A stretch of 64,000 nucleotides of DNA from Candidatus Acetothermia bacterium. GTDB lineage: Bacteria > Bipolaricaulota > Bipolaricaulia > RBG-16-55-9 > DRXL01. The DNA lies in the NCBI GenBank assembly GCA_016179105.1, contig JACOSB010000019.1:4115-68114 (forward strand), read 5' to 3'. Below are positions 18,945 through 43,545 of this stretch, piece after piece. The notes under the pieces are model-generated. The model did no database searches and had not been told where the DNA came from. It saw only the letters and a program-made list of their open reading frames with translations. Numbering within the stretch: position 1 is the first letter of the stretch; each line of letters opens with the position of its first letter. Both the position numbers and the translations under genes were made by a program.

Positions 18945-19005
18945 AAAGAGAGGAAGAACAGCAGCGCTGCTCCCCCTACTGCAAAAACTCTGAATGAAAA
19001 CTGGG

Positions 19006-19473
19006 TTAGGAAGCGTGCTTCTCTTCCTCGACCACGACGCGAATCGACGCCGCAATATCTTTGTACAGCGCGAGTTTGACCGGGTGTGTGCCCAGCGTCT
19101 CGATCTGATGCGCGCCCAGCCCGACTCGGTCTTTCTCGATCTCGATCCCCAGCTGCTGTTGAATCTGCTCGACGATCTCCTCGCGGCGCACGGTGCTGTA
19201 GAGCTTGCCCTCGTCGTGCGACTTGCGCTGGAAGGTCAAGACAAACCCGTCTACCTTGGTCTTGACACTCTTGGCCCACTCCTCGCGCTTCTTGAGTTCC
19301 AGCTCGCGCGCGTCTCTCACTTTCTTGAAGCGATTGACATTGTGCGGCGTCGGCAAGGTCGCCACGTTTTTCGGAAATAAGTAATTGCGAGCGTAGCCAT
19401 CGGCTACCCGCACGATATCGCCGGGCTCGCCGAGTTTCTCTACACTCTGCGTCAAAAGCACTTCGATCGGCAT
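19006..19473 (-). CDS. rplI: 50S ribosomal protein L9
   Basis: MPIEVLLTQSVEKLGEPGDIVRVADGYARNYLFP is a canonical L9 N-terminus. Confidence 0.9.
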   Translation of the reverse strand: MPIEVLLTQSVEKLGEPGDIVRVADGYARNYLFPKNVATLPTPHNVNRFKKVRDARELELKKREEWAKSVKTKVDGFVLTFQRKSHDEGKLYSTVRREEIVEQIQQQLGIEIEKDRVGLGAHQIETLGTHPVKLALYKDIAASIRVVVEEEKHAS

Positions 19474-19506
19474 GTGCTACCCTCCCTAGGTTGTTAGCAT
19501 ACAAGG

Positions 19507-19526
19507 CAAGGGGCTTAAGCCCCTTG
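19507..19526. other. Perfect 20-bp palindrome caaggggcttaagccccttg in the rplI/folP divergent intergenic region
   Basis: Read directly; possible operator or leader hairpin. Confidence 0.4.
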
Positions 19527-19644
19527 TTCAAACGATAGTTCGGGCATTTTACCGAGCCGAAGGGCGGTTCGTCAAGGCGAATATAGAAAAAGCGCATTGC
19601 TGATAGCATTGATTTGACTGTATAGTATGGTGTGGGGGCTCACA

Positions 19645-20496
19645 ATGACAGATGTCCTCTCGAAGATCGGTCATCAGACCCTCGTGATGGGGATTTTGAA
19701 CGTCACGCCTGATTCCTTTTCGGACGGTGGCCAATTCTTGGAATTCGAAAAAGCTGCCGAGCACGCACAACGATTAATCCGAGACGGAGCGGATATTTTG
19801 GACATTGGCGGCGAGTCGACGCGCCCCGGCTCGGAGCGAGTTTCTCTTGACGAAGAACTGCGAAGAGTGATTCCAGTTATTAAATTAATTCGCCAAGTCT
19901 CAAAAATCCCGATCTCGATCGACACGTATCGCTCTCAGATAGCCAAAGCAGCGCTAAATGCTGGGGCCGATATTATTAACGACATCAGCGCGCTACGTTT
20001 CGACGAGCGCATGAAAGACTTAGTATCTGAAGCGAAGGTTCCGGTTGTGTTGATGCACATGCTGGGTGAGCCGAAGACGATGCAGCAGAACCCCATCTAT
20101 CGCGATGTGATGGGCGAGATTATTCAGTTCTTGCGCGAGCGCATTGACGTCGCCGTGCGAGCGGGGATAGAGGAGAGAAAGATTTGGGTCGATCCGGGGA
20201 TTGGCTTTGGGAAAAAAGTCGAGCACAACATCGAGATTCTGCAGCGCTTGAGAGAGTTAAAAATATTGAAGAAGCCAATCTTGATAGGGATATCGCGCAA
20301 ATTCTTCTTAGGTGCGTTGGCGAGCGATCCACCCTTGCTGCCCCAGGATAGATTAGAAGGCACGATCGCGAGTAACGTGATTTCTGTGATGAACGGAGCG
20401 GACATCGTGCGCGTGCACGATGTGCAAGCGACCAAAAGAGCGTTGAGAATTGTGGATGCGGTGGTGCGGGGGACTGAAGCTGCAAAATCCGATTAG
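19645..20496 (+). CDS. folP: Dihydropteroate synthase
   Basis: ORF 19627..20496; start MTDVLSK at 19645. Pterin-binding motifs (GILNVTPDSFSDGG, DIGGESTRPG). Confidence 0.9.
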   Translation: MTDVLSKIGHQTLVMGILNVTPDSFSDGGQFLEFEKAAEHAQRLIRDGADILDIGGESTRPGSERVSLDEELRRVIPVIKLIRQVSKIPISIDTYRSQIAKAALNAGADIINDISALRFDERMKDLVSEAKVPVVLMHMLGEPKTMQQNPIYRDVMGEIIQFLRERIDVAVRAGIEERKIWVDPGIGFGKKVEHNIEILQRLRELKILKKPILIGISRKFFLGALASDPPLLPQDRLEGTIASNVISVMNGADIVRVHDVQATKRALRIVDAVVRGTEAAKSD

Positions 20497-20519
20497 CTTT
20501 AAGGTCGCAATTTGTGACT

Positions 20520-20741
20520 TCAAACTCTTCTAGTTTCTTTTTTTTTCATTTGTCTCATTTGATCAACAAGGCTAGCGATAGTTTCCCCTTCAAATAACTT
20601 CGCTCTTTCTGCAGTGTAATCCCCATGCCCTTGATCAAAAAATTGAACAAAACGAATTGCATCGGCTATGCCCAATTTATCGCATAGCACAGCAAAACCT
20701 TCACGAGTAACCTCAGCCATAGTTCTGGTTTTGGTTTTCAA
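20520..20741 (-). CDS. Small hypothetical protein (about 66-73 aa) co-oriented with the HicB-like gene; possible toxin-antitoxin component
   Basis: ATGA-type 4-nt overlap with the upstream HicB-like gene. AT-rich codon usage. No recognisable family. Confidence 0.4.
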   Translation of the reverse strand: MKTKTRTMAEVTREGFAVLCDKLGIADAIRFVQFFDQGHGDYTAERAKLFEGETIASLVDQMRQMKKKETRRV

Positions 20742-20989
20742 GTGGATTCCTTTTCTAACCGATCTTCGATAGGTAAGCGAATTACATCTTCGAGATTGTC
20801 CAGGACTTCTTCGTAGGTATCACCTTGGGTGTAACAGCCTTGTAACGCGGGACAAAACGCAAAATAACCATCTTTGTCTTTTTCGATGACGGCTAGTAAA
20901 ACAAATTTGCGAAGCATAGTTTTCACTCCTTTCGATTCAGAAAAAAATGCATTAACCTCCAGCAGTTTCTCGTTTCTTAAAAGCTTCAA
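20738..20989 (-). CDS. HicB-like (UPF0150) antitoxin-family protein
   Basis: MLRKFVLLAVIEKDKDGYFAFCPALQGCYTQGDTYEEVLDNLEDVI is the HicB N-terminal-domain pattern. The true start may be the internal Met near 20917. Confidence 0.6.
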   Translation of the reverse strand: MKLLRNEKLLEVNAFFSESKGVKTMLRKFVLLAVIEKDKDGYFAFCPALQGCYTQGDTYEEVLDNLEDVIRLPIEDRLEKEST

Positions 20990-22064
20990 TTATGCTAGCG
21001 TGGGCTTTCTCTAAACTTTGAAAGGAAATAGTTACGGGAGTTCTATCATCAATGGCCTTTCTTTGATCGTGCTTGAAGATTTTCAAGATCTCTTTCAGGT
21101 AGTCGTTAATATCTATTTTGTAAAAGTTGTGATCGCGGAATTTTATAAACTCATGATACCTCTGTTCAACAGTTCCTGTTTCATCATCAAGACAAATAAT
21201 ATCTATATTCTTCAGACGGTTCGCTTTCAGTGTGGAGGATTTCAACAAATATCTTACATGATTATCATTTAGTGGTAATGAATAACCTAAAATACGTAAC
21301 TGCGTAGCGTTCTCTAGTAGCTTGCCTGCTAATCGCCAAGCTGGTTGAATTTCTGGATCTGAGCTTTTATTCCAAGTGGGAAGAGTTAGAGTAAGAGGGT
21401 CGATGCTACCATGTAGTTTGGCTAAGTAAGTTTTATCTTCTCTCACAGAACTATCGTTTTCCACCTCTGTAAAGAAGGAGATCTCCGGTTCAAATGTGAT
21501 GCGTTCAGTGAGCAGTTTCATTACAATTTCAAAGATCAAATCATAATTCAGCGTTATGATGGAGTAAATGGCATCGGAATCTTTGGATCTCGAACACCGC
21601 ATATTTGTCTTATCGATTCTGCGTGCGAATATCTGAACTTGAAGATTCAATAAGTTACATGCGAATGCACCATACGGAGACCATATATCACCGAATATAG
21701 CTTCAGGAAAGCTATCTGACTGTGATGTTGGCAAGAATTCATCGCAATTGATCTTCGGTATAGGAGTCGCCCATCTAATAGTATCTGCTATGTACTTACG
21801 AAAATCCTCTATATCACTATTCCCTTGTGTGAATTTCTGCATTTCTAGAATTGATAATATTTCTTCAATGTTAAAAACGTCGGCTTCGTAGTACTTAAGA
21901 ATCTGAGATATGTTAGCTACAGTATGGAAAATTCTTTCAAAATGAGGCGGTCTTATGGCTTGCTTCAAATACAAGTCCAGAGACTTAAACCAAAAGTCAC
22001 GCATCACTGGTATATCCAACGGCGCTGAAAAACCTGCTCCTAGCAAGTAAATTATTTTTTCCAT
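20952..22064 (-). CDS. SIR2_2-family (SIR2-like) protein, standalone; candidate NAD+-targeting defence effector
   Basis: Motifs in ThsA-like order: IYLLGAGFS (GAGxS), IITLNYD (TxNYD), KLHGS (catalytic His), RILGYSLP. About 370 aa. The gene sits in a clearly AT-richer stretch than its flanks. Confidence 0.65.
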   Translation of the reverse strand: MEKIIYLLGAGFSAPLDIPVMRDFWFKSLDLYLKQAIRPPHFERIFHTVANISQILKYYEADVFNIEEILSILEMQKFTQGNSDIEDFRKYIADTIRWATPIPKINCDEFLPTSQSDSFPEAIFGDIWSPYGAFACNLLNLQVQIFARRIDKTNMRCSRSKDSDAIYSIITLNYDLIFEIVMKLLTERITFEPEISFFTEVENDSSVREDKTYLAKLHGSIDPLTLTLPTWNKSSDPEIQPAWRLAGKLLENATQLRILGYSLPLNDNHVRYLLKSSTLKANRLKNIDIICLDDETGTVEQRYHEFIKFRDHNFYKIDINDYLKEILKIFKHDQRKAIDDRTPVTISFQSLEKAHASIIEAFKKRETAGG

Positions 22065-22082
22065 AATTGGCCTTTAATAATT

Positions 22083-22931
22083 TTACTTTTTTCTCAACCT
22101 CGCCTCAATCAACCCGTGGGGCTCATCCGTCGGCACGAAGATCTCGTTGTGGTTTTCCATCCCGAACGGCGATAGGTCCACAAGCAAACAATGCTTGTTC
22201 GGCAACGAGAGCGAAATCTCAACAATATCCTCAAATTTTTTGAGCACCACCTCGCCGATCGCATAGAGCGTCTGCTGCACTGAAAGGCTGTCATGCTCGG
22301 CGAACGTTTCTAAGATGAGTTGCCGCACGCCACGCCAGAGCGGACCGGAAGCTGCTTCAGGACGAGAGTAGAGCCAAGTGACTTTCATCGCCGTGGCGAA
22401 GATCCGGTCGTTGGTCTCTTTTAGTGTCGTGTATTGATCCTTGAGAAAACCTTCAAATCCTGACTGGGTCGTCTTGAGCACGAGCAAGCCTTCAATACCG
22501 GATTCGACTACGGTGCTTTCGCGCGTCGCGTTCACCCGGGCGGTGCGCTTCTCGTTGCCGCTCTTGGTGAACGAATGATGGTGCGGCGTTCCGCCGACAG
22601 CGATGCGCAGCCACTGGTTTTCTTCGATGTCGATAGTGACACGCGAAGTCTGTGGATTGTTCTTCAGAAAGTGCTCCGTGAGCCGCAGCGCGAAATCTTC
22701 AATCTCTTCGATCTCCGGCACCTGCTTCGCGAGCGCATAGACTGTATTCTTCATTGTGTCGGTGGGTAGAACTTTGCTATTGTCACCCACGGTATGCGCT
22801 GCCTCGAAATCCCCCTCGAACGCGACGTTAACTGAGATGTCCTGCAAATCATGACGATCCTCGTACCGTGCGACCTTCACCAATCTTACGCACGATTTGC
22901 CATAGTTGCTGTGCGCCAAAATCACAGACAT
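22083..22931 (-). CDS. uox: Urate oxidase (cofactor-independent uricase)
   Basis: Uricase signature VLKTTQSGFEGF. Two tunnel-fold halves. Confidence 0.85.
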   Translation of the reverse strand: MSVILAHSNYGKSCVRLVKVARYEDRHDLQDISVNVAFEGDFEAAHTVGDNSKVLPTDTMKNTVYALAKQVPEIEEIEDFALRLTEHFLKNNPQTSRVTIDIEENQWLRIAVGGTPHHHSFTKSGNEKRTARVNATRESTVVESGIEGLLVLKTTQSGFEGFLKDQYTTLKETNDRIFATAMKVTWLYSRPEAASGPLWRGVRQLILETFAEHDSLSVQQTLYAIGEVVLKKFEDIVEISLSLPNKHCLLVDLSPFGMENHNEIFVPTDEPHGLIEARLRKK

Positions 22932-22935
22932 AGTT

Positions 22936-23280
22936 TTAACTCCCTCGATAGGTCGAATAGCCGAATGGACTCAAGAGCAACGGCACGTGATAGTGCTGCG
23001 ACGCGTCCCGAATTGTGAAGCTCACTGAAACCTCCGGATAAAATCCTTGAATGTTTTGGTTCGAAAAGTAAGCCCCAGTATTGAACCTGATCCTATAATT
23101 TCCCGGTTGCAGTGGGTAGTCTGAGGACAGCAGGTTTCTCAACCGTCCATCTTCATCGGTCACACCCTTCCCGATCATTTTCCAGGCGAACACTGAAGTC
23201 TCGAATTCAAGAAAGACAGGCACGCCGCGCGCCGGGCAGCCCTGGGTAACATCCAAAACGTGAGTCGTAATTTTGCTCAT
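22936..23280 (-). CDS. uraH: 5-hydroxyisourate hydrolase (transthyretin-like)
   Basis: 114 aa; C-terminal YRGS tetrapeptide; HVLD...G.PA..V motif. Confidence 0.85.
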   Translation of the reverse strand: MSKITTHVLDVTQGCPARGVPVFLEFETSVFAWKMIGKGVTDEDGRLRNLLSSDYPLQPGNYRIRFNTGAYFSNQNIQGFYPEVSVSFTIRDASQHYHVPLLLSPFGYSTYRGS

Positions 23281-23281
23281 C

Positions 23282-23800
23282 TCATTCTATCGCTCCCACA
23301 AGTTTTTTCAGTCTGATCTCCATGATTTTTCGTTGTTCTTCTGCCGCGATGCGCAGCTCCACTTTGGGGTCATTACTCAATCGCTGGCGGCACATTGAAA
23401 GCATCTCTTTGCTGCTTTTGCCTGTAGCGCAAACGATAAAAATATAATCGAATTTTTCTTCGTACGCGCGGTTGGCTTCAGCGAGTAACATCAATGCCTC
23501 ACTCGTGGCAGTATGAATTCCAGCTTGCTCTTGTTTGGACCAGTGTGATGCTTGCGCTGACTGAGCTCGCGCCGCTTTACGTTCGCCGATCTTGGGATGA
23601 CTGGCGAAGGCTTCCAACCAGTCCTGAGCATCTAGACTCCACCAAATTTGTCGTGCCTTCCTCAATAAATCTGTCAGATCATTGAACGGCCGAGCTTCAG
23701 CCATCTGCCGCGCCCACGCGCGTGAACCGCAACAAGCCAGTAGATCCGCTTCAGCCGCTTTACCTGAAGCTTTGTTCAGACGTTCGATGCCGGTCATCAA
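23282..23800 (-). CDS. uraD: OHCU decarboxylase (2-oxo-4-hydroxy-4-carboxy-5-ureidoimidazoline decarboxylase)
   Basis: CCGSRAWARQMAEARPF...SHPKIG pattern. Confidence 0.75.
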   Translation of the reverse strand: MMTGIERLNKASGKAAEADLLACCGSRAWARQMAEARPFNDLTDLLRKARQIWWSLDAQDWLEAFASHPKIGERKAARAQSAQASHWSKQEQAGIHTATSEALMLLAEANRAYEEKFDYIFIVCATGKSSKEMLSMCRQRLSNDPKVELRIAAEEQRKIMEIRLKKLVGAIE

Positions 23801-24810
23801 ACCCCACTCTTGGTGATCCTACCGAAAATGCGCAATCGGCTCACGCCGCCATCGGGAAAGATGTTGAACCGCACATGAGTCGCCGAGCCGATGTTCATAA
23901 TCTCGTCTTCAAAAAAATGACGTGTGTGTGCTTGCAGCTTCGTGCGCGACAGAACTTCCTTCCAGTCAAACTTGGAAAAATCTTCTGGCTCGCGGCCTTG
24001 AATATCACATGCTTCGAGAGAGCAGCTTTCTGGAAAATTTCCTTTGAACCAAGAAGTATCAACTTCAATGCGCTGGATAGTTCCCTGTCTGCCAAGTCGG
24101 ATGACGCTCCAATCATGTCCCGGCCCACGGCGGCGTTTGGTCTCCCACCCGTCGCTCATATTCGCGGCGCGGTCCGGCATGATCAGATTGTGGCGATGAC
24201 CGAAGAACATGTCACTGCACGCGATCACCCGACCGCCGTTTTCCACAGCAGCCAGATCGATTTCGCTCTCGCGCCGAATCAAGCGATCCCAGTTCGGCAG
24301 GACTTCACCGTACGCGCGCAGCCGCGCCACACCTCCGTCGGGATAGATTTTGAGTTTCAAATGTGTGACGCGCTCGGCGCGCTTGATCTCAAACGAATTG
24401 CGTGAATCACCTTGCAAGGACGATTTCGGTAAGATCTCAGACCACGGAACAGTATCACTCGTCAGTTGCTTCACATCGGGGTTGCCTTCAAGAGTACGGG
24501 CTTCGATCGAACAATGCGACGGGTAATTGCCCTTGAAAAAACTCGTGTCAACGATGACCCCGCGAATGCTGCCCGGCAGGCCGAGCCGGATGATGCACCA
24601 GTCATAGAGCTCATGCAGGTTCAGCGCACGTTTGCGGCGCGTCTCCCAGCCATCCATCCATTTGCCGTTGTCCGTGTATTTGCCCTCGATAAAGACCGGT
24701 GCGCTTGTTTTCAACAAGTCTTCTTTCGGGGCAAAAAACTCATCGTTTGCATAGAGCACTGTGCCGCCCAAGCGCTCGGAAGCTAGATCAATGAGCTCAG
24801 TGAAATCCAT
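23797..24810 (-). CDS. alc: Allantoicase
   Basis: Two allantoicase repeats with DGWETRR / DGWETKRRR motifs. Confidence 0.8.
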   Translation of the reverse strand: MDFTELIDLASERLGGTVLYANDEFFAPKEDLLKTSAPVFIEGKYTDNGKWMDGWETRRKRALNLHELYDWCIIRLGLPGSIRGVIVDTSFFKGNYPSHCSIEARTLEGNPDVKQLTSDTVPWSEILPKSSLQGDSRNSFEIKRAERVTHLKLKIYPDGGVARLRAYGEVLPNWDRLIRRESEIDLAAVENGGRVIACSDMFFGHRHNLIMPDRAANMSDGWETKRRRGPGHDWSVIRLGRQGTIQRIEVDTSWFKGNFPESCSLEACDIQGREPEDFSKFDWKEVLSRTKLQAHTRHFFEDEIMNIGSATHVRFNIFPDGGVSRLRIFGRITKSGV

Positions 24811-24822
24811 CAGTTCTCTCCC

Positions 24823-26172
24823 TCATTGTGTCAGCAGTTGCCCCAGCGGCTCCGCTGAAAATTTTCCATCATCGTACACCTTTTGTCCTCGCACATATAC
24901 AGCTTCGACTATCCCGTTTAATGTCCGTCCATTATACGGCGTCAGTTTGTGTTTGTGCTGGATAATCGATGGCTCAACACGAAATGTCGCTTCGGGATTC
25001 CAAATGACTAAATCCGCATCGTAGCCAACCTTCAATGCTCCTTTGCGATGATGCAAGCCAGCGAGCTGTGCGGGTTTGTGTGACATCCACTCAGCTAGGT
25101 GGCGAAGCTCGAGGTCGCGCTCCTTCATCTCTGTCCACATCACGGGCAAGCCAAATTGCAACGAAGCAATACCGCCCCAAGCTTTCATAAAATTGCCCGA
25201 CTCACACAACTTCAGATGTGGCGGGCAGGGCGAATGATCAGAGACAACCATATCGATCACGCCCTCGCGCAGTGCTTCCCAGAGCTTTTCACGGTTCTCG
25301 CGCTCGCGCACCGGAGGGCAGCATTTGAATTCGGTCGCGCCATCGGCCACGTCTTCGGCTGAAAATGTTAGATAGTGTGGGCAAGTCTCTACTGTAATAG
25401 GCACGCCATCGGCTCTGGCTTCGCGCAACATTGGCAAAGCCTCTGACGACGAAAGATGCACGATGTGAACGCGCGCGCCGGTCTCGCGACTCAGGCGGAT
25501 CATCATCGCAATCGCTTCGTTTTCGGCCGCGTGCGGGCGTGATTTAAGAAATGTGTGATACAGTTTCGGATCGCTGTTAGCAATCTCCTTGGCTGCGCGC
25601 TCAATCGATCCGGGGACTTCCGCATGAACGAGTAGTACAGTGTTGAGTTCTGCCAATATGGGCATAGCATTTCGAAGATCGGATTCGCTGACATTGGGGA
25701 ATTCATTGACGCCGGAGTGAACGAGAAAACATTTGAAGCCGCGCACGCCCGTTTCCATCAATGGCCGAAGTTCTCTCAGATTGCCCGGCACGACTCCTCC
25801 CCAGAACGCGACATCCACCCAGCATTGCCCGCGCGCAGCGGCAAGTTTTTCCCGAAATCCCGACAGCGCTGTTGTCGGTGGAATGCTGTTGAGCGGCATA
25901 TCTACCAATGTTGTAACGCCTCCAGCAGCAGCGGCGCGCGTTGCAGATGAAAAACCTTCCCAGTCGGTTCGCCCCGGCTCGTTAACGTGAACGTGCGTAT
26001 CCACCAGTCCGGGCATCACGACGGAATCGCTTACATCTATCACTTTGGCATCCGAAGAGACTGCACCGCGCTCAGTGATGGCAGCGATCAATCCATCACG
26101 AATGTGAATCGAGGCCGGCCTAATCTTCTCAGGCGTAACGACTCTTTTGCTAGTGATAATCAGATCAGCCAT
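24823..26172 (-). CDS. allB: Allantoinase (cyclic amidohydrolase family)
   Basis: ORF to 26253; likely start MADLIITS. DTHVHVNEPGRTDWEGF metal-binding motif. Placed in a ureide cluster. Confidence 0.75.
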   Translation of the reverse strand: MADLIITSKRVVTPEKIRPASIHIRDGLIAAITERGAVSSDAKVIDVSDSVVMPGLVDTHVHVNEPGRTDWEGFSSATRAAAAGGVTTLVDMPLNSIPPTTALSGFREKLAAARGQCWVDVAFWGGVVPGNLRELRPLMETGVRGFKCFLVHSGVNEFPNVSESDLRNAMPILAELNTVLLVHAEVPGSIERAAKEIANSDPKLYHTFLKSRPHAAENEAIAMMIRLSRETGARVHIVHLSSSEALPMLREARADGVPITVETCPHYLTFSAEDVADGATEFKCCPPVRERENREKLWEALREGVIDMVVSDHSPCPPHLKLCESGNFMKAWGGIASLQFGLPVMWTEMKERDLELRHLAEWMSHKPAQLAGLHHRKGALKVGYDADLVIWNPEATFRVEPSIIQHKHKLTPYNGRTLNGIVEAVYVRGQKVYDDGKFSAEPLGQLLTQ

Positions 26173-26176
26173 ACCA

Positions 26177-26785
26177 TCATTCAACTTCAGCGCCGTACAC
26201 TCTCGCCACTTGAATGGCTTGGGCAATATCCAAACGTACACCTTTAAGGTCAAAGCTCCTGAAATCTACCCCATCGATGATAGCGCCCCGTAGATCGGCT
26301 CCCTTGAGAACCGCTTGAGCGAGATTGGCTTTGGTTAGATCCGCCTCTCGAAAGTCAGCGTTCTCTAAATCGCACCCATAGAGATCGGCTTCGGTGAATC
26401 GCACGCGCTGGAGGTCGAGACCTTTCAGGCTGCTATGTCTTAGGTTCGTGTACGACCAATCTCCAGTCACGATGGATAAAGCTGTTAAATCTGCTTGAAG
26501 AAAAGAAGATCCGGTCATCTTGCAACTGATAAATTGAGCACTGAACAGTCTCGCTCCCGCGAATGTGCAATTCGTGAACGCTGAGCCTTTGTGATTGGAG
26601 GAGTTTAATTTAGCATTGCTGAAATCGCACTCGGAGAACAAACATCGATGAGTGGTCAGCTCGCTCATGGGAGTCCGTCGGAAACTGCATCGCACAAACC
26701 GACAACCTTCAAAATGTTTTCGATTGAAATCAGCACCCTCAAATTTCTCATCTATGAATTCTTTATTAGCCCATTCGTCTGACAA
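26177..26785 (-). CDS. Pentapeptide-repeat protein (Qnr/MfpA-like size, 202 aa)
   Basis: Continuous A(D/N)LxG pentapeptide repeats (ADLTKANLAQAVLKGADLRGAIIDG...). Confidence 0.8.
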   Translation of the reverse strand: MSDEWANKEFIDEKFEGADFNRKHFEGCRFVRCSFRRTPMSELTTHRCLFSECDFSNAKLNSSNHKGSAFTNCTFAGARLFSAQFISCKMTGSSFLQADLTALSIVTGDWSYTNLRHSSLKGLDLQRVRFTEADLYGCDLENADFREADLTKANLAQAVLKGADLRGAIIDGVDFRSFDLKGVRLDIAQAIQVARVYGAEVE

Positions 26786-26862
26786 TAAGAATACCTCCCT
26801 TTATGCACGATAACATTTTATTTGAAGAAGCATTCGATTAGCAGGACCAGCTATACCGTTGG

Positions 26863-27225
26863 TTAACTGTTGATCCCTTCAGATGTCTCATCATCCGAGG
26901 TTTTCGCCAACTGCGGAGCCACTTTAGGCAGTTCCGAAGTAACAACCTGCCATACGATGTCGAGATTAACACCAAAATAATGATGAATCAGCCGGTCCCG
27001 CACACCGGCCATGCTCTTCCAAGGAATATCAGGATGCTTCGCTCGCAATTCTTCAGATAGGTTCTTGGTTGCTTCGCCGATGATCTCTAGATTACGAATG
27101 ACCGCGTCCTGAGTCTTAATGTCAGCCAGGAAGGCTTCATACGTCATCCCTCCAGTGTAAGCCTCTATCCGGTGGATGGCTTCTTTGATGTCGCTCAGAA
27201 AGTCTCTATCCGTTCGCTCAGACAT
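26863..27225 (-). CDS. hepT: HepT-like (DUF86, HEPN) toxin of a HepT/MNT module
   Basis: R-x4-H-x-Y motif (RDRLIHHYFGV); 120 aa. Confidence 0.8.
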   Translation of the reverse strand: MSERTDRDFLSDIKEAIHRIEAYTGGMTYEAFLADIKTQDAVIRNLEIIGEATKNLSEELRAKHPDIPWKSMAGVRDRLIHHYFGVNLDIVWQVVTSELPKVAPQLAKTSDDETSEGINS

Positions 27226-27520
27226 ATACGATGCTTTCTGAGATGTCCTTGGCCACTCGGGCTACTCTAATTCCCTGGATGCCGGCGGGAGTCAGCACGT
27301 CCACCTTCCGGCCGAGCAAGTGCTCAAGGTATTCTGCAAACTCAATAAACCTGAGGCCGATCGGGTGTCCGAACTCCACCACGACGTCAATGTCGCTGGC
27401 TTCGTCGGGCTGTCCTTTGGCGTAAGAGCCAAATAAGCCGATCCTTTTGACACCGTACTCGGAGACAAGATAGGGGTAGTTTTCTCGGAGTAGCTCTACA
27501 ATCTTTTCCCGGGTTAACAT
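27218..27520 (-). CDS. mntA: MNT minimal nucleotidyltransferase antitoxin
   Basis: GLFGSYAKGQPDEASDIDVVV (GS...DxD). 8-nt overlap with hepT. Start taken at MLTREK. Confidence 0.8.
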   Translation of the reverse strand: MLTREKIVELLRENYPYLVSEYGVKRIGLFGSYAKGQPDEASDIDVVVEFGHPIGLRFIEFAEYLEHLLGRKVDVLTPAGIQGIRVARVAKDISESIVYV

Positions 27521-27737
27521 AATGAGGCCTTTCGCGAAGTATGCTCGCTGCACACGGGCTTTCAGATGCTGTTATAGTGAGTATACCACAGGTGATTTTG
27601 TCTTGTAAAGACGCGTTGCTTCCTTCGTCCTCGTCCAGACAGCAATTCTTCAATACCGATATGCTCGTCCCCCAAACCGCAACGTGACCATGGTCGGGTG
27701 CAGCGGCTTAGTTGGACGGCACCCATCCGTGTCAGCC

Positions 27738-28199
27738 CTACTTCTTCCTGCGCTTCCCACCTCTGGCTTCCAACTCTTCAACATCAGCTAGGTCCTGGGT
27801 GCGCCCAGCGGCACGCTTATTCTTGATCAAATGCTCCATGGACAACACGGCCACAGCTTGATCCGCAAACTGGGTCAATGTCCGGGCGGACCAGGCTTCC
27901 GCAAACTCCACTCCATCAATGGCAGTCAGAACATCGATACGCAGAGGAGGCATGCCAATCTGGAAAATAAGGCCGGGGATAATCAGGTCTGCTTCAGTCA
28001 GGTCGTGCAACGGGGCACCAAACGCCCGCAGCGCCTTGAGCACTCGCCTCGCATTCTTCGTGTCAGGTCGAACCCACACATCGAGATCATTCGTAGCACG
28101 GACATGCCCATGGGCAGCTAGCGCGTGCGCGCCGACCACCAGATATTCAACGCCCTGGGCGTTGAATTCGGCTAACAGATCTCTGAAGTCGCGGTTCAT
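27738..28199 (-). CDS. Nucleotidyltransferase-fold protein (Pol-beta superfamily, MNT-like), second TA-like module
   Basis: VEYLVVGAHALAAHGHVRATNDLDVWV (hG...DxD). Confidence 0.55.
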   Translation of the reverse strand: MNRDFRDLLAEFNAQGVEYLVVGAHALAAHGHVRATNDLDVWVRPDTKNARRVLKALRAFGAPLHDLTEADLIIPGLIFQIGMPPLRIDVLTAIDGVEFAEAWSARTLTQFADQAVAVLSMEHLIKNKRAAGRTQDLADVEELEARGGKRRKK

Positions 28200-28374
28200 C
28201 GACTTGGTCCCTCTGCCAGGCAAGGCACAGCAGGGTCAACTCCCACACGGCATTGATTCGTTCCTCCGGCGTAAAGTTCTCCCACTCGTGCTCTTCCGGC
28301 AGAGGTTCGCCCTGGCGGATCACTCGGCTGGTGATGTTTTTGCGAAGAGCGGTAGAGTCCATAGGTGTACTCAT
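28147..28374 (-). CDS. Small partner protein of the downstream nucleotidyltransferase (75 aa)
   Basis: Co-oriented; overlaps the NTase start by about 50 nt. No family recognised. Confidence 0.35.
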   Translation of the reverse strand: MSTPMDSTALRKNITSRVIRQGEPLPEEHEWENFTPEERINAVWELTLLCLAWQRDQVDEPRLQRSVSRIQRPGR

Positions 28375-28810
28375 TGTAGCCTAATGTTGCGTGAACTTCC
28401 GCCTTTGTTGAGCTTGATGAGTGCTTCATCCAGAAAGCTACTGAATTCTTTAACTACTGATTGCGCAGGTTTGAATCGAGCGTCTGGAAATCTTCACTCT
28501 TGGTCAAAGAATGAAGCACTTCCGCCAATTTTTCTGGAGGCGTCGTCAACTTGCGCGTCGCTAAGTCCAACCACCCTCCGGTGCTGGTGACACGGGCGAC
28601 TCGTTTGCCGTCTTCTCGGGAGAATTCATTGCGTATGCAAAAGCGTGAGGCATCCTCGCTCAACCCAGCCAGAGTGAGATTCACGCTGACCGTCTCGAGC
28701 AAGTGCATTTCACGAAAGTAGTCAAGCTCGTCCCGTATGATCACTGGGCCGATCTTAAGGCGCTCAAATTCTCTCATCGAGAAACCTTGTTCCGAGAAAT
28801 AGAGCCATCT

Positions 28811-29652
28811 CGGAAATAGAGTAAGATGGAGACATGATCTGGGAAAAACTAGATGCGGATGCGCAGTTGTTTGCTTATGCCACCGGCTGTACTCGCCAGC
28901 GCTTTGACCGACTGGTCAGAGAAGTGGAAGCGGAGCTCGCAGCTCAGCCTTTACGGGGCCGGCCTTGCACCTGGCCTCTGTGGCAACCAATCCTCATCAG
29001 TTTGGTCTACCTGCGCTCGGCTCAACCGATGCAATGGATCGAGTTGACCTTCGGCGTCGACGACAGCTCGGTCTCACGCACTGTGCGCCGGATGCTCAAG
29101 TTGTTCGAGCGAGTGGGGTTCGTGTCGCCTGCACCTCTGCCGGGCTGGTCCCCGGCCCAGATCGTAGATACGACCCTCATCCCCAGCGGACGCCCCCACG
29201 GATGGGAAGCGCAGAAGCCGCTGTACAGCGCCAAACATAAACGACACGGTTACAAAGTGCAGATTCTCGAAGGCGTGGAAGGACGCTGGAGCGCCGTGAC
29301 TAAACCGAGGGTTGCTGCCACCGCCGATGCGACGATCTGGGCGCTAAATCCCAAACCAGTGCAGCCCTGCTATGGAGATCGAGCTTACCCCAAAGCGGAA
29401 GTAATTCGGCCGGCCAAACGCCATGAACCCGGACAAGATCGAGAGCGCGACCGGGTGATCTCGCGCTTGCGGGTGAAAGTGGAGCATCGGATCAAGCATT
29501 TGAAGGACTTTAAGCTGCTACGCGGGTGGCGGTTGAAGCGGCCGGTAGGCACGATCTGGGGAGCCCTCTGTTTGATCTCGGCGCTGTGGAATGGCTAAAG
29601 CCATGTGGGGCGAAGGCCTACGCTCTTCCCAGTCTCAATTACGAGATGGCTC
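28811..29652 (+). mobile_element. IS5-family insertion sequence (842 bp) with 11-bp terminal inverted repeats GAGCCATCTCG and a TA target duplication
   Basis: Left end ...gaaaTA|gagccatctcgg. Right end cgagatggctc|TAatac. Confidence 0.8.
28834..29598 (+). CDS. IS5-family DDE transposase (DDE_Tnp_1)
   Basis: DTTLIPSG...YSAKHKRHGYKVQI...YGDRAY...RVKVEHRIKHLKDFKLL motifs; 254 aa. Confidence 0.8.
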   Translation: MIWEKLDADAQLFAYATGCTRQRFDRLVREVEAELAAQPLRGRPCTWPLWQPILISLVYLRSAQPMQWIELTFGVDDSSVSRTVRRMLKLFERVGFVSPAPLPGWSPAQIVDTTLIPSGRPHGWEAQKPLYSAKHKRHGYKVQILEGVEGRWSAVTKPRVAATADATIWALNPKPVQPCYGDRAYPKAEVIRPAKRHEPGQDRERDRVISRLRVKVEHRIKHLKDFKLLRGWRLKRPVGTIWGALCLISALWNG

Positions 29653-43215: not shown

Positions 43216-43545
43216 GGAGGTCGAAAAAGACCAGTCAATTCTTTTGAGTACGAGATGTCCGTGCAAGGGCAAACCTGTCGCAAGGCAGGGGCGCAAAACC
43301 ACGGATCTGTCCGACAGACCGCCGGGTTGCCACGGGACTCCTGGATTCCTAAGGAGTGTGAGGGCTCAGGCGGTTCAATTTTTTCACTCAACTGATAAAA
43401 CGGAGCAAAGCGCGAAGGGACTGCACGCAAAGATTAGCGAAACCCCGCGGGGAAGAGGGATAGAGAGGGAAAGTGGGGTGCAGGCAAGAATCGAGACTCC
43501 CAGAGGCTGTGGAGTATTCTCCTGCGCCCCAAACTATATTCATTG
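43216..43545 (+). ncRNA. Candidate non-coding RNA or long structured greA leader (about 330 nt)
   Basis: The strong promoter at 43180-43209 is followed by GC-rich, stop-codon-dense sequence with no plausible ORF. greA has its own TTGCAC-N17-TACAAT promoter further downstream. Confidence 0.3.

Follow-up and report, generated by a model that had tools for sequence, protein, structure and literature searches.

The AT-rich islet between the uricase operon and folP in the 64-kb window (the whole stretch of DNA analyzed here) is probably a mosaic of three unrelated pieces brought together in a variable spot, and not a three-gene system. The first piece would be a gene-sized foreign cassette that was dropped into a toxin-antitoxin hotspot; its gene is intact and encodes one of the solitary, ∼350-aa SIR2_2 (SIRim-type) proteins that make up a widespread family. 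The second, hicB', would be the leftover of a hicBA pair, and the third, a small ORF, would be the surviving downstream partner (a putative antitoxin or regulator) of a PIN toxin gene that has been lost. A first-pass annotation of the same DNA had instead joined the three genes into a candidate defence or toxin-antitoxin module in which the HicB-type protein regulates SIR2.

Layout of the islet and its flanks

All three ORFs are present and all are on the minus strand, as originally described: the SIR2_2 gene at 20952..22064, hicB' at 20738..20917 and the small ORF at 20520..20741. Their spacing is different from what had been reported. The SIR2 stop codon is separated from the hicB' start by 34 nt rather than nearly touching it, and the overlap between the hicB' stop and the start of the small ORF is TTGA, with a TTG start, and not ATGA. 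On one side the islet is flanked by folP (Pterin_bind; 19627..20496, plus strand), a conserved anchor that is convergent with the small gene and syntenic with the related loci L064, L067, L068 and L078. The left anchor is a gene putatively named uricase-like (22083..22931, minus strand), the last gene of the purine-catabolism operon. The GC contents of SIR2, hicB' and the small ORF are 0.376, 0.417 and 0.387, compared with 0.515 for folP, 0.532 for uricase and 0.535 for the whole window, and the 21–22 kb bin is the lowest-GC kilobase in the window. The islet is foreign DNA, and the earlier reading of the AT-rich stretch as horizontally acquired holds up. The toxin-antitoxin/IS-dense region at whose edge the islet was thought to sit does exist as a cluster of HepT+MNT, DUF6036 and DDE_Tnp_4, but it is located at 26.8–29.6 kb, past the purine-catabolism operon, and does not adjoin the islet.

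Comparison with L067, a relative that is ∼90% identical, places the variable hotspot segment at 20711..22093, between uricase and the small gene/folP. Synteny with this relative covers window positions 19000–20710 and 22094–22658. The uricase-like gene aligns with positions 6–570 of L067 at 89% nucleotide identity up to window position 22094, with its last 3–4 codons being unlike those of L067. In place of the segment, L067 carries an unrelated pair of HicB-like (102 aa) and HicA-like (97 aa) genes; SIR2 and hicB' are missing from it and the small gene is retained. The cargo upstream of the small gene is also different at the same spot in L064, L068 and L078. At its maximal extent, the SIR2 cassette spans 20933..22093 (minus strand), comprising the ORF and no more than 29 nt on its upstream and 19 nt on its downstream side; these limits are set by the end of uricase homology to L067 at 22094 and by the beginning of hicB-locus homology at 20932. 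A search of the cassette's borders for repeats or att-like sites returned only short matches at chance level, among them an 11-nt imperfect inverted repeat (20936–20946/22087–22097). Within the islet, no RNA family was detected in an Rfam search and no terminator-like site was found.

The probable hicB remnant and the small gene beside folP

The mechanically called ORF of hicB' covers 20738–20989. The actual start codon, preceded by an AGGAG, is the ATG at 20917, and the NCBI annotation gives the same 59-aa product (P0128). Calling it HicB-like was partly right: the HicB_lk_antitox threshold is narrowly passed (27.9–29.2 vs 27 bits), but the product is a truncated remnant of a family with a length mode of 74 aa. 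Over residues 1–55 it is 70–89% identical to HicB; homology ends there, the ORF stops at residue 59 and the last ∼19 residues of the HicB fold are missing. A tblastn search with the 74-aa consensus gave a match limited to 20914–20750. In HicAB type II pairs with intact genes, the normal partner of the 74-aa HicB is a 78-aa HicA, and the two overlap by 4 bp. By tblastn, the 64-kb window contains neither HicA nor PIN of the relevant families, in agreement with the earlier report that HicA is missing, and the locus contains neither a complete HicB antitoxin nor an adjacent HicA.

The 3′ end of hicB' is derived from a different gene. HicB codons 1–55 run into the final few codons and stop of the lost PIN gene, which are all that the window retains of it (within 20738–20759), and no PIN + small pair is found at this locus. 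Local alignments place the end of hicB homology (with L072) at 20749 and the start of PIN-end homology (with L064 and L065) at 20759. The two are fused through a microhomology of ∼10 nt (20749..20759, minus strand), which reads GTTAGAAAAGG in hicB vs GTGAGAAAGG at the PIN 3′ end. In an order of events reconstructed from a handful of related loci, one deletion at this microhomology would have removed the last ∼19 hicB codons, hicA and nearly all of the PIN toxin gene.

The small ORF encodes a small basic helical protein of an uncharacterized family, with 73 aa from the TTG or 66 aa from an ATG at 20720, and it is an orphan here. It had no match in Pfam, PADLOC or NCBIfam, none of the eight small-protein homologues had a Pfam match even at E≤10, and its AF2 model consists of four helices at low confidence (pLDDT 63). 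It is 63–94% identical to its counterparts in L064, L066, L068 and L078, with lower values for the divergent L079 pair. In L064, L066 and L079 there is a 4-bp overlap between the homologue and an upstream PIN gene, and the gene adjoins folP in L064, L067, L068 and L078; its companions elsewhere are PIN, HicA-like or methyltransferase cargo, but not SIR2. The pair to which it belongs is itself uncharacterized. A PIN-domain (VapC-like) toxin precedes the small partner in a toxin-first gene order, often beside an N6_N4_Mtase–Mrr_cat fusion, and no Pfam family covers the small protein. The small gene is therefore better viewed as a member of this pair, of which it keeps the TTGA coupling junction, than as part of a module with SIR2, as had been suggested. 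It would still be translationally coupled, via the inherited TTGA overlap, to whichever ORF now precedes it.

Compatible with a mosaic and independent of SIR2 is the idea that hicB' and the small protein, though orphaned, still function as antitoxins or regulators and have been kept on that account, for instance to give anti-addiction immunity against incoming hicBA or PIN modules. Among loci without PIN, dN/dS over the small gene's core is 0.04–0.10, calculated from small counts (6–13.5 synonymous and 1–4 non-synonymous differences), and beside folP the gene appears to be under purifying selection whatever lies upstream. Neither ORF is disrupted, and each has either a ribosome-binding site or the TTGA coupling signal. 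Against this stand the small size of those counts and the incomplete fold of hicB', and we consider such retention rather unlikely.

A family of solitary SIR2 genes

The identification of the 370-aa protein as SIR2_2 was correct. Its Pfam match scores 33.7 bits vs a gathering score of 24.5 over residues 168–282, and GAGFS, TLNYD, KLHGS and GYSLP are all present and invariant across the family. Judged by its sequence, the protein is a bona fide SIR2_2 member with the catalytic Asn and His. Across 21 sequences, residues G9–S13, N173, D175 and H218 do not vary, and across 118 they are at least 90% conserved; N173/D175/H218 align with N163/D165/H212 of PsSIR2, in which catalytic mutants lose defence (PMC11472057). 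In total, 74 columns are at least 90% conserved in the family, and the window copy matches 70 of them, including the three catalytic positions; its 4 departures from consensus compare with a median of 2. The protein has the sirtuin Rossmann fold and lacks the zinc-ribbon module, as expected of the SIR2_2/SIRim group, and the absence of the zinc-ribbon Cys pairs can be read straight off the sequence. Its fold is nearest to those of antiphage SIR2s, the closest structural relatives being HerA-partnered SIR2 proteins, and there is no evident sensor domain in the 370 aa. A sequence search of solved structures with the single protein gave zero matches at E≤10, and a profile search gave marginal matches only.

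The homologue family comprises 681 cluster representatives (50% identity clusters) at E≤1e-30, and the best 150 of these are all single-domain proteins of 324–407 aa that match over their full length. Hosts include Acidobacteriota, Chloroflexota, Firmicutes, Gammaproteobacteria, Planctomycetota and Verrucomicrobiota, among others. In the literature on standalone or orphan SIR2 defence genes, we found no description of this ∼350-aa SIR2 family. The solitary family also has conserved motifs of its own, namely DLFNIEEILSILEM, PTWNK and GYSLP, together with the C-terminal residues D288, D293, R302, F306 and H355.

Analysis of the genomic context indicated that SIR2 is a solitary and horizontally mobile gene. 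As the first-pass annotation had noted, no HicA, HerA, TIR, SLOG, pAgo or STAND partner adjoins it in the window, and a HerA gene is likewise absent beside SIR2 at all 52 genome loci carrying full-length homologues. Neither a HicB-like nor a small-protein gene lies next to SIR2 at any of them or in the three closest metagenomic relatives, and at most two of these 52 loci share any one neighbour family. When 150 neighbours (positions ±1 and ±2) were scanned against Pfam/PADLOC, no family had more than 2–3 members, and 124 different Pfam families were represented; most neighbours are housekeeping genes, and only a few encode methyltransferases or other defence-type proteins. The defence-island context of the family is weak. 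No motif common to the upstream or downstream regions of the homologues was found. A hicBA pair located 2.3 kb from the homologue in L009 was considered as a partner; it is complete, independent and not adjacent to SIR2, and was therefore judged coincidental. The GC content of SIR2 is lower than that of its flanks in 51/51 evaluable loci (mean difference, 12 points), and in 22 of the 27 loci with enough contrast the low-GC islet corresponds to the SIR2 gene ± at most 300 bp.

These data bear on whether SIR2 is a metabolic or regulatory NAD+-dependent enzyme (a deacylase or ADP-ribosyltransferase) that is expressed with the purine-catabolism operon. Because the uricase–SIR2 gap is only 18 nt, SIR2 could be transcribed by read-through from the uricase operon if it lacks its own promoter. 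A promoter-like site, TTGAGG-17-TAAAAT (22080..22108, minus strand), spans the uricase stop codon, a short distance before the SIR2 ATG, but it serves as a lead only, since the count of such sites in the consensus scan is not above that in shuffles. The preponderance of housekeeping neighbours and the lack of a clear defence-island enrichment would also fit a metabolic role, as would the absence of the family from phage and plasmid collections (no tblastn match in either). On the other hand, the family is not consistently found in purine-catabolism operons or in any other metabolic neighbourhood, and its appearance as a foreign, AT-rich single-gene islet at every evaluable locus is unlike the behavior of a housekeeping gene. 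Moreover, the zinc-ribbon of deacetylating sirtuins is missing, the nearest folds are antiphage ones, and an association with immunity has been reported for the SIR2_2/SIRim clade as a whole (bioRxiv 10.1101/2024.09.18.613514). A metabolic role is thus improbable.

The HerA-partnered structural relatives, and the divergence of the window copy, which lies somewhat above the family median, could also be taken to mean that SIR2 is a decaying orphan left behind when HerA or another partner was lost from a two-gene system. However, the ORF in the window is unbroken and retains every catalytic residue, and the 681-cluster family is uniformly solitary, full-length and strongly conserved, which argues for long-term selection as a stand-alone protein and makes decay very improbable. 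Least credible, to the point that we give it almost no weight, is a single co-evolved defence or toxin-antitoxin module of SIR2 as toxin/effector, a HicB-like antitoxin and the small protein: shared orientation, tight packing, common AT-richness, probable co-transcription and an above-threshold HicB_lk_antitox match speak for it, but the trio co-occurs in 0/52 genome loci and 0/3 of the closest metagenomic relatives, the supposed regulator is a truncated HicB whose family pairs with HicA and whose end is a chimeric junction with PIN, and the small gene comes from a PIN pair and persists without the other two in L067, so that a SIR2–HicB module is not supported.

Comparison with antiphage SIR2 systems

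By homology and fold, the product of the SIR2 cassette would be an NAD+-consuming enzyme of the antiphage-sirtuin type. It would be kept auto-inhibited, probably as an oligomer, its NAD+ pocket closed off by a helical small domain in the manner of PsSIR2, until an infection-associated cue switches it on and the resulting NAD+ depletion aborts the infection. By analogy with its relatives, NADase activity is likely and auto-inhibition plausible, while the chance of a defence role, taken alone, is about even.

Among known systems, the SIR2 subunit of SIR2-HerA/Nezha (Paenibacillus PsSIR2, PDB 8w9l; E. coli, 8j4u) is most similar to the window protein, although sequence similarity is marginal (profile E=0.019) and the adjacent HerA gene of that system has no equivalent here. 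The curated antiphage SIR2 equivalog NF042942 (NCBIfam SIR2_antiphage) scores 13.2 bits vs a cutoff of 500. Unlike Thoeris ThsA (SIR2-SLOG or SIR2-Macro), the protein has a single domain and neither a SLOG/Macro domain nor a ThsB/TIR neighbour. DSR1 and DSR2 resemble it in being single-gene systems with an N-terminal SIR2 NADase, but DSR proteins are about 1000 aa long with large C-terminal sensor domains (PMC11850899), and this sensor region is absent both from the window protein and from its family, which has no extra domain. With respect to SPARSA (SIR2-APAZ + short pAgo), the PADLOC Aga_SIR2 match is confined to residues 162–222, the catalytic core, and no pAgo ORF is nearby.

Tentatively, the ∼350-aa solitary family may represent a single-gene antiphage NADase that has not been described before and needs no partner, related to the SIR2-HerA effector but lacking HerA; it would sense infection alone and spread between phyla as a gene-sized AT-rich cassette without a recognizable mobility gene. 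The islet also illustrates that adjacency within a toxin-antitoxin hotspot can mimic a new system and that a truncated antitoxin ORF can clear an HMM threshold and receive a HicB annotation. As a constant and exact single-gene low-GC islet, SIR2 would provide a clean case for studying how tiny, putatively defensive cassettes move. If the family does act in defence, no smaller SIR2-based immune system would be known, since it consists of the catalytic domain only, and the question would become how a 350-aa NADase detects infection yet is kept silent with no HerA, TIR/SLOG, pAgo or large sensor domain to help.

The AT-rich islet between uricase and folP

Three ORFs are present on the minus strand at 20520-22064. 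The first (20952-22064) encodes a 370-aa SIR2 protein whose Pfam SIR2_2 match clears the gathering score (33.7 bits versus 24.5) and which keeps the catalytic Asn and His (N173 and H218). The HicB-like ORF, hicB', has a mechanical start at 20989; its likely start is the ATG at 20917, which follows AGGAG and gives a 59-aa product identical to the NCBI annotation of the source contig, part of a Candidatus Acetothermia MAG, and its HicB_lk_antitox match passes narrowly (27.9-29.2 bits versus a gathering score of 27). The small ORF (20520-20741) begins with a TTG overlapping the preceding stop as TTGA and has no family match in Pfam, PADLOC or NCBIfam. GC content is 0.376 for SIR2, 0.417 for the HicB-like ORF and 0.387 for the small ORF, compared with 0.515 for folP, 0.532 for uricase and 0.535 for the whole window, and no other kilobase of the 64 kb is as low in GC as the 21-22 kb bin. 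The ORF calls, family matches and low GC therefore uphold the three AT-rich ORFs described in the first-pass annotation. Of its proposal that they form one defence or toxin-antitoxin module, the horizontally acquired SIR2 protein stands as a candidate effector; the three-gene module is not supported, because the genes fail to co-occur in 52 loci, hicB' is a remnant and the small gene is normally the partner of a PIN gene.

The islet had also been placed at the edge of a toxin-antitoxin and IS region. Such a region exists at 26177-29598, comprising a pentapeptide-repeat protein (26177-26785), a HepT-like and NTP_transf_2 (MNT) toxin-antitoxin pair (26863-27553), a DUF6036 nucleotidyltransferase (27738-28223) and a DDE_Tnp_4 transposase (28834-29598), but purine-catabolism genes lie between. 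These form an apparently complete urate-to-ureidoglycolate operon on the minus strand (22083-26253), with putative names read off the translations: uricase, a transthyretin-like HIU hydrolase (ending YRGS), OHCU decarboxylase, allantoicase and allantoinase. Elsewhere in the window, a c-di-GMP-I-GGC riboswitch aptamer at 43259-43335 on the plus strand (RF03167, 63 bits versus a gathering score of 59) was the only Rfam match.

A solitary SIR2 family

A word-indexed search returned 916 relatives of the SIR2 protein, nearly all of 340-370 aa, the closest beyond the window's own sequence being 45% identical. An exhaustive profile search (E ≤ 1e-30) gave 681 cluster representatives at 50% identity; the best 150 of these are all 324-407 aa long, with one domain matching end to end and no fusions. 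Alignment of 118 members identified 74 columns conserved at 90% or more, including the motifs GAGFSAP, LNYD, KLHG, PTWxK and GYSLP and a C-terminal residue set. The window protein retains 70 of them, with N173, D175 and H218 all included. Profile alignment equates N173/D175/H218 with N163/D165/H212 of PsSIR2, the SIR2 subunit of a Paenibacillus SIR2-HerA antiphage system; the PsSIR2 paper names these residues as catalytic and reports loss of phage protection in catalytic mutants (PMC11472057). In the sequence, none of the four cysteines falls in a CxxC pair, and the zinc module found in deacetylating sirtuins is therefore absent. Its AlphaFold2 model is confident (pLDDT 86, pTM 0.88), and behind the top match the fold comparison scored E. 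coli Nezha (SIR2-HerA) Sir2 at 14.7, ThsA at 13.8, KomC at about 13 and canonical sirtuins at about 11; as modeled, the fold is nearest to antiphage SIR2 effectors. Judged by sequence scores, the protein is not a member of the curated defence models: it falls outside NCBIfam SIR2_antiphage (13 bits versus a cutoff of 500), and its PADLOC matches are confined to the catalytic core.

To survey its context, 63 genome loci were fetched, one per species, with a full-length homologue in 52. When three genes on each side were clustered, no family was common to more than two of the 52, bearing out the suggestion that the protein stands alone. The 150 neighbors at ±1 and ±2 scanned with Pfam and PADLOC yielded 124 Pfam families of at most two to three members each and are mostly housekeeping, with a few methyltransferases or resolvases. 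No HicB-like or small protein was found by tblastn adjacent to SIR2 homologues in these genome loci, and among metagenomic relatives with usable contigs the three closest likewise lacked HicB near SIR2; the trio was thus not recovered outside the window in either set. One weak HicB-like match (L009) was rejected as a partner, being part of a complete, separate hicBA pair 2.3 kb away. An integrase lies 1-2 kb from SIR2 in two of those three metagenomic relatives.

The SIR2 gene is lower in GC than its flanks in all 51 evaluable loci, by 12 points on average and by more than 5 in 44 of them. Of the 27 loci in which this contrast is 8 points or more, 22 have a low-GC islet that coincides with the gene to within 300 bp. 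Across the fetched loci the islet is usually exactly one gene long, lacking an integrase, and no flanking motif or repeat common to them was seen. Homologues were absent from phage and plasmid collections, and hosts are spread over many phyla. The SIR2 ORF of the window lies between the arms of an imperfect inverted repeat of 11 nt, TTCAGAAAAAA / TTTTTTCTCAA (20936-20946 and 22087-22097); the repeat is short and A/T-rich, and so probably due to chance. The family is partner-less, and its behavior is that of a foreign cassette one gene in size.

Origin of hicB' and the small gene

Members of the HicB-like ORF's family are most often 74 aa long and match the window ORF at 70-89% identity, over residues 1-55 only. 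At three intact comparison loci (L069, L070 and L072), a 74-83-aa hicB is followed by a 78-aa hicA with a 4-bp overlap; tblastn found no hicA anywhere in the 64-kb window. At the DNA level, the stretch from 20932 to 20749 is homologous to hicB, whereas that from 20759 down to about 20528 matches the final codons of a PIN-domain gene together with the small gene. These blocks join in a microhomology of about 10 nt (GTTAGAAAAGG against GTGAGAAAGG), and the 59-aa ORF is therefore chimeric, with hicB codons 1-55 followed by a PIN tail. A single deletion would have taken the 3' end of hicB, hicA (if present) and the PIN gene. A sister state occurs in L065 (4401-5150), where a 26-codon hicB 5' fragment runs into the beginning of a PIN gene that is itself truncated, as is the small gene behind it; the same insertion site, within an amino-acid ABC transporter operon, holds intact hicBA in L072 (2202-2686). 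This comparison indicates that hicBA and the PIN+small pair met and decayed at least twice. In another metagenome (L069:2501-4140, L070:2501-4125), the same short hicBA pair lies beside an unknown gene of 146 aa, which in turn overlaps one encoding a ThsB_TIR domain, with no ThsA visible within the stretches fetched.

In L064, L066 and L079, the last of them divergent, the homologue of the small gene shares 4 bp with a PIN-domain gene upstream; the PIN protein of L064 reaches 30.9 bits versus a Pfam gathering score of 23.6. The pair often sits beside a 540-555-aa N6_N4_Mtase-Mrr_cat fusion gene (L064 and L066, with remnants in L077 and L078), the two being joined in either circular order. This recurrent cassette (L064:765-3172, L066:2-2112, L078:2419-3189, L077:548-901, L079:483-1261), several copies of which carry internal deletions, resembles an uncharacterised PIN pair in toxin-first order that travels alongside a restriction-modification-like fusion enzyme.

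The small gene marks a hotspot beside folP, with which it is convergent in five syntenic Acetothermia-like loci that differ in upstream cargo: SIR2 and hicB' in the window; the methyltransferase-Mrr fusion and PIN in L064; a methyltransferase fragment and 48-aa PIN remnant in L078; uricase, then an unrelated HicB-like (102 aa) and HicA-like (97 aa) pair in L067; and in L068 a different two-gene pair, read as HicB/HicA-like, without a Pfam match. The window and L067, about 90% identical on both sides, are colinear at 19000-20710 and 22094-22658 and completely different across 20711-22093, with breakpoints within the small gene's first ~10 codons and uricase's last 3-4 codons. In the three PIN-less genomes the variable-cargo breakpoints always fall within those first ~10 codons. 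Among these PIN-less copies (window 20520-20741, L067:1418-1636, L068:493-714) the core of the small gene has a dN/dS of 0.04-0.10 (48 codons, small counts), indicating strong purifying selection, so that the orphan has probably kept its function; its protein is modeled by AF2, at low confidence, as a four-helix bundle. No connection of hicB' or the small gene with SIR2 was demonstrable, and the proposal that a HicB-type antitoxin regulates a SIR2 effector is an adjacency artefact in a toxin-antitoxin hotspot.

Possible role of the SIR2 protein

The SIR2 gene is intact, foreign and solitary, and its SIR2_2 product has the full catalytic triad. This product would work like the SIR2 effector module of Thoeris, SIR2-HerA, DSR, SPARSA and Avs5; it may hydrolyse NAD+ and, as in PsSIR2, may be auto-inhibited by a small domain over the pocket, probably in an oligomer, until an infection trigger leads to abortive infection. 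The locus is not a member of any of these systems, each of which needs a partner or domain that was tested for and not found here. Expression may begin at a candidate promoter-like site (22108-22080) that straddles the uricase stop and is not statistically distinguished from shuffles; alternatively, the gap to uricase being only 18 nt, transcription of the purine-catabolism operon could simply read through into the gene.

For the SIR2_2/SIRim clade taken together, a 12-fold enrichment near defence systems is reported (bioRxiv 10.1101/2024.09.18.613514). For the present family, we consider a defence role about evenly balanced, since its own direct context evidence is weak. The literature searched contained no account of a SIR2 defence gene of ~350 aa that lacks a partner, which is absence of evidence. 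The interest of the locus lies not in the trio but in the solitary SIR2 family and its behavior as a gene-sized cassette.
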